Shown here piece by piece: positions 13,745-19,024 of a stretch of 39,315 bases of DNA; position 1 is the first letter of the stretch; every line of letters begins with the position of its first letter. The stretch lies in sequence record PZ445456.1; one strand, given 5' to 3'. The notes beneath the pieces were generated by a model. That model was not told where the DNA came from, searched no databases, and saw only the letters and a program-made list of their open reading frames with translations. The stretch is from a phage. The position numbers and the translations under genes were made by a program.

Positions 13745-15552
<1,808 letters not shown>

Positions 15553-15617
15553 TAGCCATTGGGTAGACCAGTGGGAAGAACTGAACGAGCGCGAACAGGC
15601 GCTCTACAGAAAGCAAT

Positions 15618-15640
15618 CAATACAACTCACTAATGGGACA
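15618..15640 (+). promoter_or_regulatory. Phage RNAP promoter (phi4.3-like variant)
   Basis: CAATACAACTCACTAATGGGACA; lies in the overlap/gap before gene 4.3. Confidence 0.45.
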
Positions 15641-15683
15641 GACACTCTGTTCCCACTTATCAATCCACTTAAGGAGAATCACA

Positions 15684-15896
15684 ATGTTTAAATTCATCAA
15701 CACTCTTGGTAAGCTGGTAGTTAAAATGTACTTCCGTGAAGCTAAACGTCTGAACGACAAGGCACGTAAGGATGCAGAACAGGCTCAACGCTTGGCGAAA
15801 CATGCACGTCTACTGTCTGAAGATGCAAGTGCTGGCGTTACGTCTGCTGCTAAGATTGCAGCGAAAGCAACCGACCTGAACAAGTTCTTCCTGTGA
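15684..15896 (+). CDS. Gene 4.3-like protein, 70 aa
   Basis: MFKFINTLGKLVVKMYFREAKRLNDKARKDAEQ...; RBS AAGGAGAATCACA-ATG; resembles T7 gp4.3 as recalled (same length, EAKRLNDEARK). Confidence 0.65.
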   Translation: MFKFINTLGKLVVKMYFREAKRLNDKARKDAEQAQRLAKHARLLSEDASAGVTSAAKIAAKATDLNKFFL

Positions 15897-16075
15897 TGGT
15901 TACGATAACCCTTGTGCTCACTCTGATAACTGTGAGCGGACAAACAATAAGTCAAGTCCCTATCACGGCACCAAAGGCTGAGGCATACGAGATATGCGAA
16001 CAACAAGGGCGCTCGTGGTCTAAGGACTTGATGAAGAACGGCAGGGTTTTCACTGCCAACTACAACTGTATCTAA
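15893..16075 (+). CDS. Small protein with signal-peptide-like N-terminus, 60 aa
   Basis: ATGA overlap with the 4.3 stop; MMVTITLVLTLITVSGQTISQVPITAPKAEAYEICEQQGRSW...; no T7 counterpart recognised. Confidence 0.4.
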   Translation: MMVTITLVLTLITVSGQTISQVPITAPKAEAYEICEQQGRSWSKDLMKNGRVFTANYNCI

Positions 16076-16089
16076 TAGGAGTACACAAC

Positions 16090-16392
16090 ATGGCTATTAA
16101 ATTCCCCGGCAACACAATCCGTCTGTCCGACACCATCGACCAGTATGTTCGTCGAGTGCACATCAACGTTCGAAACGGCAAGGTCACTTTGGTCTACCGC
16201 TGGAAGGACAGTAAGTCCACCAAGGCGCACACACAGCGTGTGACTCTGGATGACACACAGGCAGGTCGTCTGCTGGCCTCCGTTGCCGTAGCCGCTACTG
16301 TGGCTGTAGGTGAAGACAATGTTCGTCAGGTTCTGCTGGGTAAGACCGTAGAGTCTGAGGGCAACATGCTTGCTGACAAGTGTGAAGAATAA
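16090..16392 (+). CDS. Hypothetical protein, 100 aa (gene 4.5 position)
   Basis: RBS AGGAGTACACAAC-ATG; between 4.3 and the R4.7-like hairpin, where T7 carries gene 4.5; no sequence homology confirmed. Confidence 0.55.
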   Translation: MAIKFPGNTIRLSDTIDQYVRRVHINVRNGKVTLVYRWKDSKSTKAHTQRVTLDDTQAGRLLASVAVAATVAVGEDNVRQVLLGKTVESEGNMLADKCEE

Positions 16393-16396
16393 GAGT

Positions 16397-16440
16397 TAAA
16401 CTAAAGGTCATCTACATGGTGGCCTTCGTGATTAACTTTT
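16397..16440 (+). promoter_or_regulatory. RNase III-type processing hairpin (R4.7-like), copy 3 of 3
   Basis: TAAACTAAAGGTCATCTACATGGTGGCCTTCGTGATTAACTTTT; near-identical to the copies at 9088 and 9604. Confidence 0.55.
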
Positions 16441-16449
16441 GTATGAAAT

Positions 16450-16472
16450 CTATTCAACTCACTAATGGGAGA
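16450..16472 (+). promoter_or_regulatory. Phage RNAP promoter (phi4.7-like variant)
   Basis: CTATTCAACTCACTAATGGGAGA; core -10..+6 conserved, upstream part divergent. Confidence 0.4.
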
Positions 16473-16480
16473 ACAACACT

Positions 16481-16897
16481 ATGCGTAATCGTAATGTAAT
16501 CGAAGCTGAAATCGCTAAACTGGAAGCTGAACTGGCAGACGTTAAAGAGTATGAATGTGCTCGTGACTCCGCTGTCCACATCCTGAAGAACTTAGGATGG
16601 ACCCGCAAGTATGGCAAGTGGGTCAAACCAGTAACCAATAGTGGTAGCGTTGGTATGCAGACTTTCGACGCAAACAAGATGACCCACATTAAGGCTGGGG
16701 ACTTCTGCACCTCCACCAGCAACGCAGACATTTGGTATGTCCGTAAGGTCGATGGGACAGACATTTGGTGCTCCCGTGTGACTCGCATTGATGCAATGGG
16801 TACAGTCGCTGGGATTCAGTATCACAAGATGAACCACAAGAACCTGCGTGTGGTTGACCCTAAGAACTTCATGGGCTACCGCAAATCTACATTTTAA
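16481..16897 (+). CDS. Gene 4.7-like protein, 138 aa
   Basis: Size and position (after the R4.7-like site, before gene 5) match T7 gp4.7 (135 aa); no catalytic motif recognised. Confidence 0.6.
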   Translation: MRNRNVIEAEIAKLEAELADVKEYECARDSAVHILKNLGWTRKYGKWVKPVTNSGSVGMQTFDANKMTHIKAGDFCTSTSNADIWYVRKVDGTDIWCSRVTRIDAMGTVAGIQYHKMNHKNLRVVDPKNFMGYRKSTF

Positions 16898-16909
16898 GGA
16901 GCAAACACA

Positions 16910-19024
16910 ATGTTACTATCCGACATCGAAACAAACGGGTTGCTGCACAACGTTAGTCAATTTCATTGTGCGGTGACTTACGACTACACAACTGACCAGT
17001 ACATCCGTTACCGACCTGATGACTTTGGGGCATACATTGATGCACTCGAAGCCGAGGTTGCTCGTGGTGGTCTCATTGTGTTCCACAACGGTCACAAGTA
17101 TGACGTTCCTGTTATCGAGAAGCTGGCGAAGCTGATTCTGAATCGTGACGTTAAGTTCCCGAAAGAGAACGTCTTGGACACATTGGTGATGTCCCGACTG
17201 ATTTACTCTAACATCAAAGACACTGATGCTGGTCTGCTGCGCTCTGGCAAGCTGCCGGGTAAACGCTTTGGCTCTCACGCTCTTGAGGCATGGGGCTACC
17301 GCTTAGGCGAAATGAAGGGTGAGTACAAGGACGACTTTAAGAAGTCACTGGAAGAGTCTGGTGATGAATACGAAGAGGGGATGGAGTGGCTGTTCTTCAA
17401 CGAAGACATGATGGAGTATAACGTTCAAGACGTTGTAGTTACTAAGGCACTCTTTGAGAAACTGTGTAGTAACACTTTCTATTTCCCGAACGAGACACCC
17501 GCTGGAAGCACAGAAGCAGAACGTTTCTGGAACGGTAGCCTTGAGGCTGTCAAGCTGGAACATGATGCTGCTTGGTTGTTAGCTAAGATGGAACGTAATG
17601 GTTTCCCTATTGACATCAAGTCCTTAGAGAATCTTTACGCTGAACTAGCTGGTCGCCGTGGTGAACTTCTGGTCGAACTGACCAACACTTTCGGTTCATG
17701 GTATCAGGCCAAGGGTGGCGTTGAGGCATTCCGTCATCCGAGAACTGGTAAGCCGCTCACTAAATATCCTCGTGTGAAGTATCCGAAACAGGGTGGCATC
17801 TTTAAGAAGCCAAAGAACAAGAAGCAACGTGAAGGTCTGGAACCTTGTGAACTGGACACTCGTGATTATGTAGAGGGCGCTCCGTATACGCCTGTAGAGC
17901 ACGTTGTGTTTAACCCTGCAAGTCGTGACCACATCACCCGTGTGCTTACCAAAGCTGGATGGGTTCCCGTTGAGTTCACTCCGAGTGGTGCACCAAAGGT
18001 AGACGATGAGGTATTGGAACACGTTAAGGTAGACGACCCGGATGCACAGCGTTGCATTGAGTTGATTAAAGAATACCTTATGATTCAGAAACGTATTGGT
18101 CAGGTTGCTGAAGGTGACAACGGCTGGCTCCGAATGATTGGAGACGATGGTCGTATTCACGGTAGCGTTAACCCGAACGGTGCGGTAACTGGACGTGCAA
18201 CTCATAGTTTCCCTAACGTGGCACAGGTGCCTTCAATCCGTGCTGCATATGGTGAACCTTGCCGTGCTGCTTTCGGTGCCGAGCACAACATGAAAGATGG
18301 TAAGCCAGACCCTTGGATTCAAGTTGGTGTGGATGCATCCGGCCTTGAGCTACGCTGCTTGGGTCACTTCATGTATCGCTATGATGAGGGAGAGTACGTT
18401 GAGACTATCCTCACTGGTGACATCCATACGAAGAACCAATTGGCTGCGGGTCTACCAACTCGTGACAACGCTAAGACGTTTATCTATGGGTTCCTCTATG
18501 GTGCTGGTGCTGCAAAGATTGGACAGATTGTTGGTGGTACTGCCGAAGATGGTAAGCGCCTCATCAAGAACTTCCTTGAGCAAACTCCGGCTATCGCTGC
18601 GTTGCGTGAAGCAATCACAGGTACACTCGTCAAGGACTCTAAGTGGGTTGGCGGTGAACAGAAAGTAACTTGGAAACGCCGTTGGGTTCGTGGCTTGGAT
18701 GGTCGTAAAGTACACGTCCGTAGTCCCCACGCTGCGTTGAACACCTTGTTGCAATCTGCTGGTGCTCTGATTTGTAAACTGTGGATTGTAGAGACTGAGC
18801 GTCTGTTACTGGAAGCTGGCCTGAAGCATGGCTGGGATGGTGACTTTGCGTACATGGCTTGGGTCCACGACGAAATTCAGGTAGCTGCTCGTACACAAGA
18901 GATTGCCGATAAGATTGTCGAGTTGGCACAACAAGCGATGCGTAATGTGGGAGACCACTTTAACTTTAGATGTCAGTTAGATACCGAAGGTAAGACTGGC
19001 GCAAACTGGAAAGATTGTCACTAA
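16910..19024 (+). CDS. 5: DNA polymerase (family A) with thioredoxin-binding insert, 704 aa
   Basis: Exo motif LSDIETNGL; LIVFHNGHKYDVP; thioredoxin-binding loop HPRTGKPLTKYPRVKYPKQGGIFKKPKNKKQREG; pol motifs NAKTFIYGFLYGAG, YMAWVHDEIQV match T7 gp5. Confidence 0.98.
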   Translation: MLLSDIETNGLLHNVSQFHCAVTYDYTTDQYIRYRPDDFGAYIDALEAEVARGGLIVFHNGHKYDVPVIEKLAKLILNRDVKFPKENVLDTLVMSRLIYSNIKDTDAGLLRSGKLPGKRFGSHALEAWGYRLGEMKGEYKDDFKKSLEESGDEYEEGMEWLFFNEDMMEYNVQDVVVTKALFEKLCSNTFYFPNETPAGSTEAERFWNGSLEAVKLEHDAAWLLAKMERNGFPIDIKSLENLYAELAGRRGELLVELTNTFGSWYQAKGGVEAFRHPRTGKPLTKYPRVKYPKQGGIFKKPKNKKQREGLEPCELDTRDYVEGAPYTPVEHVVFNPASRDHITRVLTKAGWVPVEFTPSGAPKVDDEVLEHVKVDDPDAQRCIELIKEYLMIQKRIGQVAEGDNGWLRMIGDDGRIHGSVNPNGAVTGRATHSFPNVAQVPSIRAAYGEPCRAAFGAEHNMKDGKPDPWIQVGVDASGLELRCLGHFMYRYDEGEYVETILTGDIHTKNQLAAGLPTRDNAKTFIYGFLYGAGAAKIGQIVGGTAEDGKRLIKNFLEQTPAIAALREAITGTLVKDSKWVGGEQKVTWKRRWVRGLDGRKVHVRSPHAALNTLLQSAGALICKLWIVETERLLLEAGLKHGWDGDFAYMAWVHDEIQVAARTQEIADKIVELAQQAMRNVGDHFNFRCQLDTEGKTGANWKDCH

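Follow-up and report, generated by a model that had tools for sequence, protein, structure and literature searches.

A small presence/absence gene between genes 4.3 and 4.5 of a T7-group phage and the predicted fold of its product

The block of genes from 4.3 to 4.7 in phage T7 is non-essential (PMC12664982), and two of its products, gp4.5 and gp4.3, have been reported as anti-defence factors (bioRxiv 10.1101/2024.10.10.617714). The host systems opposed by these known members are Lon and toxin–antitoxin systems in the case of gp4.5 and, weakly, RADAR in the case of both gp4.3 and gp4.5. Binding and inhibition of Lon, cited in bioRxiv 10.1101/2024.10.10.617714, are known for T7 gp4.5 only. A preliminary description of the locus studied here had contrasted it with T7, in that two ORFs rather than one were seen between 4.3 and 4.7. 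Both sides of this comparison hold: T7 has gene 4.5 alone in this position, with a gap of 19 nt between 4.3 and 4.5, and the locus contains ORFs at 15893-16075 (plus strand, 60 aa when read from a GTG) and 16090-16392 (plus strand, 100 aa from an ATG). The smaller of the two is referred to below as ORF X.

The window, meaning the whole stretch of 39,315 nucleotides of phage DNA that was analysed (record PZ445456.1), was placed by a 901-bp query around the locus, which returned identities of 96-98% to BA14/285P-group phages of Escherichia and Salmonella. By these similarities the window belongs to a Berlinvirus of the BA14/285P type, within the T7 group and the subfamily Studiervirinae. Gene 4 (primase/helicase) ends at 15552 and is followed by the equivalent of the phage-RNA-polymerase promoter phi4.3 (15617-15640, plus strand, with the core AACTCACTAATGGGA at 15624-15638) and by gene 4.3 (15684-15896, plus strand), which encodes a 70-aa DUF5471 protein (PF17565, E=6.7e-21, 74.8 bits against a cut-off of 25; phrog_1950, E=1.6e-31). 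ORF X occupies 15896-16075 (plus strand) and was characterized by a profile match to phrog_6794, by dN/dS and by an AlphaFold2 model with a predicted beta-beta-alpha-beta fold. Directly after its stop, an AGGAG read from the sequence at 16077-16081 (plus strand) is the Shine–Dalgarno sequence of gene 4.5. The 4.3-X-4.5 block ends at the equivalent of phi4.7 (16449-16472, plus strand, exact core match at 16456-16470), ahead of gene 4.7 (16481-16897) and gene 5, which starts at 16910. BA14 annotates phi4.3 and phi4.7 at the corresponding positions.

Across the whole window 15 promoter-core matches were found, all on the plus strand, compared with 1.2 expected by chance. No terminator-like or notable sigma-70-like site was seen on the plus strand between 4.3 and 4.5, and the locus DNA gave zero Rfam matches on either strand. 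ORF X is a middle (class II) gene of the transcription unit driven by phi4.3. The 15 promoter cores extend from 2301 to 38263 (plus strand) and fall into the variants GACTCACTATTGGGA, GACTCACTAATGGGA and AACTCACTAATGGGA, the last of which is confined to the two sites that flank the 4.3-X-4.5 block, phi4.3 and phi4.7. A stable RNA hairpin (MFE -22.5 kcal/mol, z=-3.2) is located at 16389-16442 (plus strand), between the gene 4.5 stop and the phi4.7 promoter; it has no match in Rfam, and its position is that of the RNase III site R4.7 in the annotations of Yersinia phages R and Y.

The product of ORF X had been described as a protein of 60 aa. The ORF itself stands, and its length needs correction: the GTG at 15893 is missing from the Przondovirus, Kayfunavirus and YSYH (Citrobacter phage) homologues, all of which keep the ATG at 15896, so the product is taken to be 59 aa (MVTIT...). 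Length alone is no evidence of a gene here, because several wrong-frame ORFs of 60-139 aa occur within the same 3.5 kb. It could be argued from the abundance of such chance ORFs in the window, and from the dispensability of ORF X in many relatives, that ORF X arose by chance or is in decay and has no function as a protein, or else that it is a passive passenger of homing-endonuclease traffic. This is very improbable given the pattern of substitution. Comparison with pO103, L014 and L015 gave dN/dS values of 0.08-0.13 (dS 0.53-0.64, dN 0.04-0.08), the protein is conserved in distant homologues at saturated synonymous sites (pN 0.18-0.38, pS 0.76-0.91), the reading frame is intact in all of the 15 or more copies, and a compact fold is confidently predicted for the product. 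Judged by its pattern of substitution, ORF X is a real protein-coding gene under strong purifying selection. Searched with a family HMM, the window gave a single copy (E=7e-37), and T7 translated in all six frames gave no relative (best E=0.42).

The stop of gene 4.3 and the ATG of ORF X share the sequence TGATG in the window, and no Shine–Dalgarno sequence stands ahead of this ATG, an arrangement in which ORF X may be translated by termination-reinitiation coupling to gene 4.3. The overlap can be followed to a small deletion. The Berlinvirus pO103 (L013, 622-673) and the Teseptimavirus contig L015 (952-1003) have a common leader, TAAGGrTTACTGTG-ATG, between 4.3 and ORF X; in the window (15880-15900), BA14 and 285P, 12 nt are missing between two CTGT repeats. 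The loss removed the TAA stop of gene 4.3, which now ends ...FFL at TGA, and thereby created the TGATG overlap.

ORF X is an already annotated gene of a catalogued family whose function has never been described, and its novelty is low for that reason. Residues 1-59 align with profile positions 1-60 of the 62 in phrog_6794 (E=1.9e-25). The protein is 100% identical to a 'hypothetical protein' in the NCBI record of vB_EcoP_S523 (HOT38_gp33), and an identical 59-aa gene is present in BA14 (AS7_0023, ACF15749, 'unknown product') and in 285P (LXB_022, ACV32494). In BA14, 285P and S523 the gene again lies between 4.3 and 4.5 with the TGATG overlap, and nothing distinguishes it from that of the window. 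Zero Pfam or NCBIfam families matched ORF X, a sequence profile search of the PDB gave nothing below E=0.08, and the supplementary data of two large screens for accessory genes do not contain the gene. Full-text literature searches with the sequence, the accession and the PHROG identifier retrieved no mention of it.

When 1.84 billion protein representatives were searched with the ORF X profile, only four small clusters of the family were recovered. Seven of the 11 profile matches were long repeat proteins (437-4156 aa, with up to 40 matched stretches), which were regarded as compositional or repeat artefacts because the ORF X profile is rich in T, V and I. One of these proteins, P0012 (the matches being P0004 and P0007-P0013), has a repeat of about 55 aa containing ...YTVCDGESW.... 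A pattern-limited scan of 185,579 GTDB bacterial species genomes found no relative of ORF X, and scans of IMG/VR and metagenomes added a handful of further copies and almost nothing new.

The preliminary description had suggested that one of the two ORFs might be the counterpart of T7 gene 4.5, and this proved to be the 100-aa ORF at 16090-16392 (plus strand). Its score for PF17574 (TA_inhibitor), the Lon/toxin–antitoxin inhibitor family, is 103.1 bits (E=8.4e-30), where the cut-off is 27. The alignment with T7 gp4.5 covers 67 aa, of which 69% are identical (E=1e-32), and the ORF has the T7 synteny, between 4.3 and the phi4.7 promoter and gene 4.7. By sequence and position, it is the usual T7-type gp4.5. 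Both ORFs were thus found to be homologous to known T7-group proteins (ACF15749, ACV32494 and phrog_6794 for ORF X, gp4.5 for its neighbour), a result that the preliminary description had itself named as one that would speak against its account. As the immediate neighbour of gene 4.5 in the same transcription unit, ORF X resembles it in the small size and non-essential nature of a class II product and in its anti-defence surroundings, but it has no detectable relationship to gp4.5. Its derivation as a duplicate, fragment or split part of gp4.5 was ruled out (hhalign probability 0.1%).

The other ORF had been called an accessory addition, which is borne out by sister phages. At a protein identity of at least 80%, ORF X was found in about 20 of 86 Berlinvirus-like records; Berlinviruses such as PYps50T, ETEP21B and PC127 lack it and have 4.3, a spacer of 13 nt and then 4.5. 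The same 4.3-to-4.5 slot is filled by ORF X in Przondovirus phages of Klebsiella, in Citrobacter phage YSYH and in uncultured Teseptimavirus contigs, the closest cultured relatives of which (phiA1122 and others, about 95% identity over just 93% of the query) do not have it. In the Kayfunavirus Vec13, ORF X is downstream of a 4.3-like gene and both lie upstream of gene 4, whereas K1F has no ORF X; the Vec13 insertion is bordered by a duplicated TAAGGAGTGACC. At the 3' end of the cassette the ORF X stop always abuts the Shine–Dalgarno sequence of the next gene, and genomes without ORF X show TAAGGAGTAACATAAC-ATG at the gene 4.5 Shine–Dalgarno junction. As read from these alignments, ORF X is a discrete one-gene cassette, present or absent among close relatives and bounded at Shine–Dalgarno sequences.

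Outside the Studiervirinae, ORF X was found among the small early-region genes of Slopekvirinae-like contigs related to phage PAS7. These copies are 63-68% identical to the window protein, compared with 49-57% for the Przondovirus and Kayfunavirus copies, and the closer match to the Slopekvirinae-like proteins may point to recent horizontal transfer. Contig L016 contains an intact HNH endonuclease gene (1910-2488; 192 aa, HNH_3 and Nuclease_act) directly upstream of ORF X, and in L011 (2880-3000) only the last approximately 93 nt of that gene remain, so that ORF X adjoins a homing-endonuclease insertion point in this lineage. It is from these two contigs that the idea of a passive passenger, mentioned above, draws its evidence; at the Studiervirinae loci no endonuclease adjoins ORF X. 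In L012 (2500-3000) a non-coding stretch of about 500 nt precedes ORF X, with a sigma-70-like TTGACG-N17-TATAGT about 330 nt upstream of the ATG, a layout in keeping with early transcription by host RNA polymerase and a long leader.

The distribution also bears on whether ORF X and gp4.3 form a module of two genes, with ORF X as its second subunit and the two proteins acting jointly. Such an arrangement would explain why ORF X always follows a 4.3-type gene in the Studiervirinae and why its translation would be coupled to 4.3 in the window. The DUF5471 gene immediately precedes it in Berlinvirus, Teseptimavirus, Przondovirus and YSYH, its start in the window overlaps the stop of 4.3, and in Kayfunavirus the 4.3-like gene accompanies it even upstream of gene 4. 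However, most phages with gene 4.3 have no ORF X, including T7, PYps50T and K1F, and the Slopekvirinae-like copies have their own Shine–Dalgarno sequence and no 4.3/DUF5471 neighbour. The Kayfunavirus 4.3-like protein falls below the Pfam cut-off (18.3 versus 25 bits), with 68 nt between its gene and ORF X, and recombination with its anchor points in the conserved 3' end of gene 4.3 and in the Shine–Dalgarno sequence may instead account for the shared position. A joint module with gp4.3 is considered rather improbable.

The hydrophobic N-terminus of ORF X (MMVTITLVLTLITVSGQTISQ) was correctly read in the preliminary description, which called it signal-like and unusual for this region. Residues 1-13 have a mean Kyte–Doolittle value of 2.47, comparable to a Sec h-region (of about 7-15 residues), and averaged over 19 residues the hydropathy comes up to 1.6, the threshold in common use. 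As in Sec signal peptides, a hydrophobic stretch of 12-13 residues at the extreme N-terminus is followed by the small residues V-S-G, and the putative cleavage site of the window protein, V-S-G↓Q, fits the -3/-1 rule. Such a segment could be a Sec signal peptide or membrane anchor, leaving a C-terminal part of about 44 aa with a C34-C58 disulfide, whose site of action would be the envelope, where it might serve superinfection exclusion or interfere with an envelope protein. All homologues share exactly two invariant cysteines, which would suit a periplasmic disulfide, and the conservation of residues 2-12 has a slightly helix-like periodicity (power of 6.0 at 100 degrees versus 0.7 at 180 degrees).

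Several features nevertheless make this envelope role quite unlikely. Unlike Sec signal peptides, the ORF X homologues have no positively charged n-region, with no K or R in residues 1-13 in 15 of 15 sequences. A lipobox cysteine is absent, the first cysteine being C34, and the hydrophobic run stops at V13; at 13 residues it is too short for a transmembrane helix, which spans at least 18-20, and the 19-residue average is no higher than 1.6. Pro at +1 blocks signal peptidase I, and the P0005/YSYH lineage has S-S-G↓P at the putative cleavage site. Signal peptides normally evolve faster than the mature parts of their proteins, and residues 1-26 of ORF X do not show this faster evolution. Mean column entropy is 0.77 for residues 1-26 and 1.38 for residues 27-59. 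In three of eight pairwise comparisons (pO103, L014 and Vec13) pN was 0.02-0.07 in the N-terminal 26 residues versus 0.06-0.50 in the rest, the other five comparisons showing little or no difference. The N-terminal value was the lower one in six of the eight in all, Kp1 and kpssk3 also counting among these and the gap being small for YSYH, and it was equal or reversed in two Slopekvirinae-like copies. Invariant residues in this part of the protein are M1, T3, L6, L8, T9, L10, G15, I18 and V21. Constraint at the DNA or RNA level was ruled out as the cause, since the DNA alignment shows the N-terminal codons to have diverged at synonymous positions, so no hidden DNA or RNA element explains the conservation there.

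Structure prediction offers another account of the same segment. AlphaFold2 run with 11 sequences gave a pLDDT of 93.6, with three of the five models above 92 and two poor ones (63-66), and a run with three sequences gave the same fold. The elements are strands at residues 2-12 and 15-25, a helix at 27-46 and a strand at 51-58. Residues 2-25 are built into the sheet as a beta-hairpin with pLDDT of 93-97, which stands against a signal peptide. The periodicity of conservation fits an amphipathic helix at 27-46 and the strand at 51-58; that of residues 2-12 was left out as support for the hairpin because it is not beta-like. Independent BFVD models of ORF X homologues superpose at TM 0.89-0.98, and the topology is common to many other phage proteins of about 60 aa (TM 0.7-0.8 in BFVD). 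The BFVD structure search matched the ORF X model to uncharacterised phage proteins only, and Foldseek against the PDB returned generic alpha/beta fragments (best E=0.35). ORF X most likely folds as a small soluble beta-beta-alpha-beta protein, and the supposed secretion signal is probably a misread hydrophobic beta-hairpin. A globular product is quite likely, and an exported one unlikely.

On the predicted model, the protein would fold in the cytoplasm as a compact beta1-beta2-alpha-beta3 unit in which the hydrophobic N-terminus serves as the core hairpin and not as an export signal. The hydrophobic core would be formed by the invariant residues L6, L8, L10, I18 and V21 of the sheet, by the helix residues C34, G38 and W41, which share one face, and by A54 and C58. 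The opposite face of the sheet is half-hydrophobic (T3, T5, V7, T9 and I11) and may be a dimer or target-binding surface. Our best guess, drawn from comparison with other T7 proteins and from the genes around it, is that ORF X encodes a small cytoplasmic host-binding accessory protein. It may bind and neutralise a host protein stoichiometrically, in the manner of gp2, gp0.4, gp5.7, gp5.9 and gp4.5, and its target would most plausibly be a strain-specific defence or stress factor. A target of this kind would account for the dispensability and patchy distribution of ORF X. ORF X resembles T7 Gp2, gp0.4, gp5.7 and gp5.9 in its size (50-70 aa), early or middle expression, compact single domain and dispensability on many hosts, but differs from Gp2 and the other small inhibitors in having no sequence similarity to them. 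T7 Gp2 has a small alpha/beta fold, and the match of the ORF X model to its structure (4lk0_M) was insignificant (E=2.1, TM 0.30). Since no similarity to characterised proteins was found, binding and inhibition are proposed by analogy only. The explanation as a whole, combining coupled translation, a compact cytoplasmic fold and stoichiometric binding of a host protein, is given about an even chance.

A broader proposal is more tentative and is regarded as somewhat doubtful. ORF X may represent a new family of small phage proteins with a beta-beta-alpha-beta fold, each directed at one specific factor of host defence or stress that it neutralises, and encoded by a one-gene cassette that would be moved by recombination at Shine–Dalgarno microhomology between Studiervirinae, downstream of 4.3, and Slopekvirinae-like early regions. 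As a conserved cassette that is under strong selection, varies between near-identical phages and lies in an anti-defence block, ORF X is a reasonable candidate for a role in host range or counter-defence, and its interest is that of a tidy, naturally polymorphic candidate host-interaction gene. Natural pairs with and without it are available (BA14/285P versus PYps50T/ETEP21B, and Vec13 versus K1F), which makes the idea easily testable.

Two further features were observed around the block. A 139-aa ORF at 15272-15691 (plus strand) runs in another frame across the 3' end of gene 4 and is the counterpart of 'gp4.2' in the BA14 and 285P annotations; its N-terminus, with a positive n-region and the residues L-L-T-C, resembles a classical signal or lipoprotein signal more closely than that of ORF X does. 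BA14 (L001, 2815-3249) contains an extra gene, 'gp2.8', between gene 4.7 and gene 5, which is absent from 285P and from the window, where 4.7 ends at 16897 and gene 5 begins at 16910; gp2.8 is a further presence/absence cassette within the 4.3-to-5 block.
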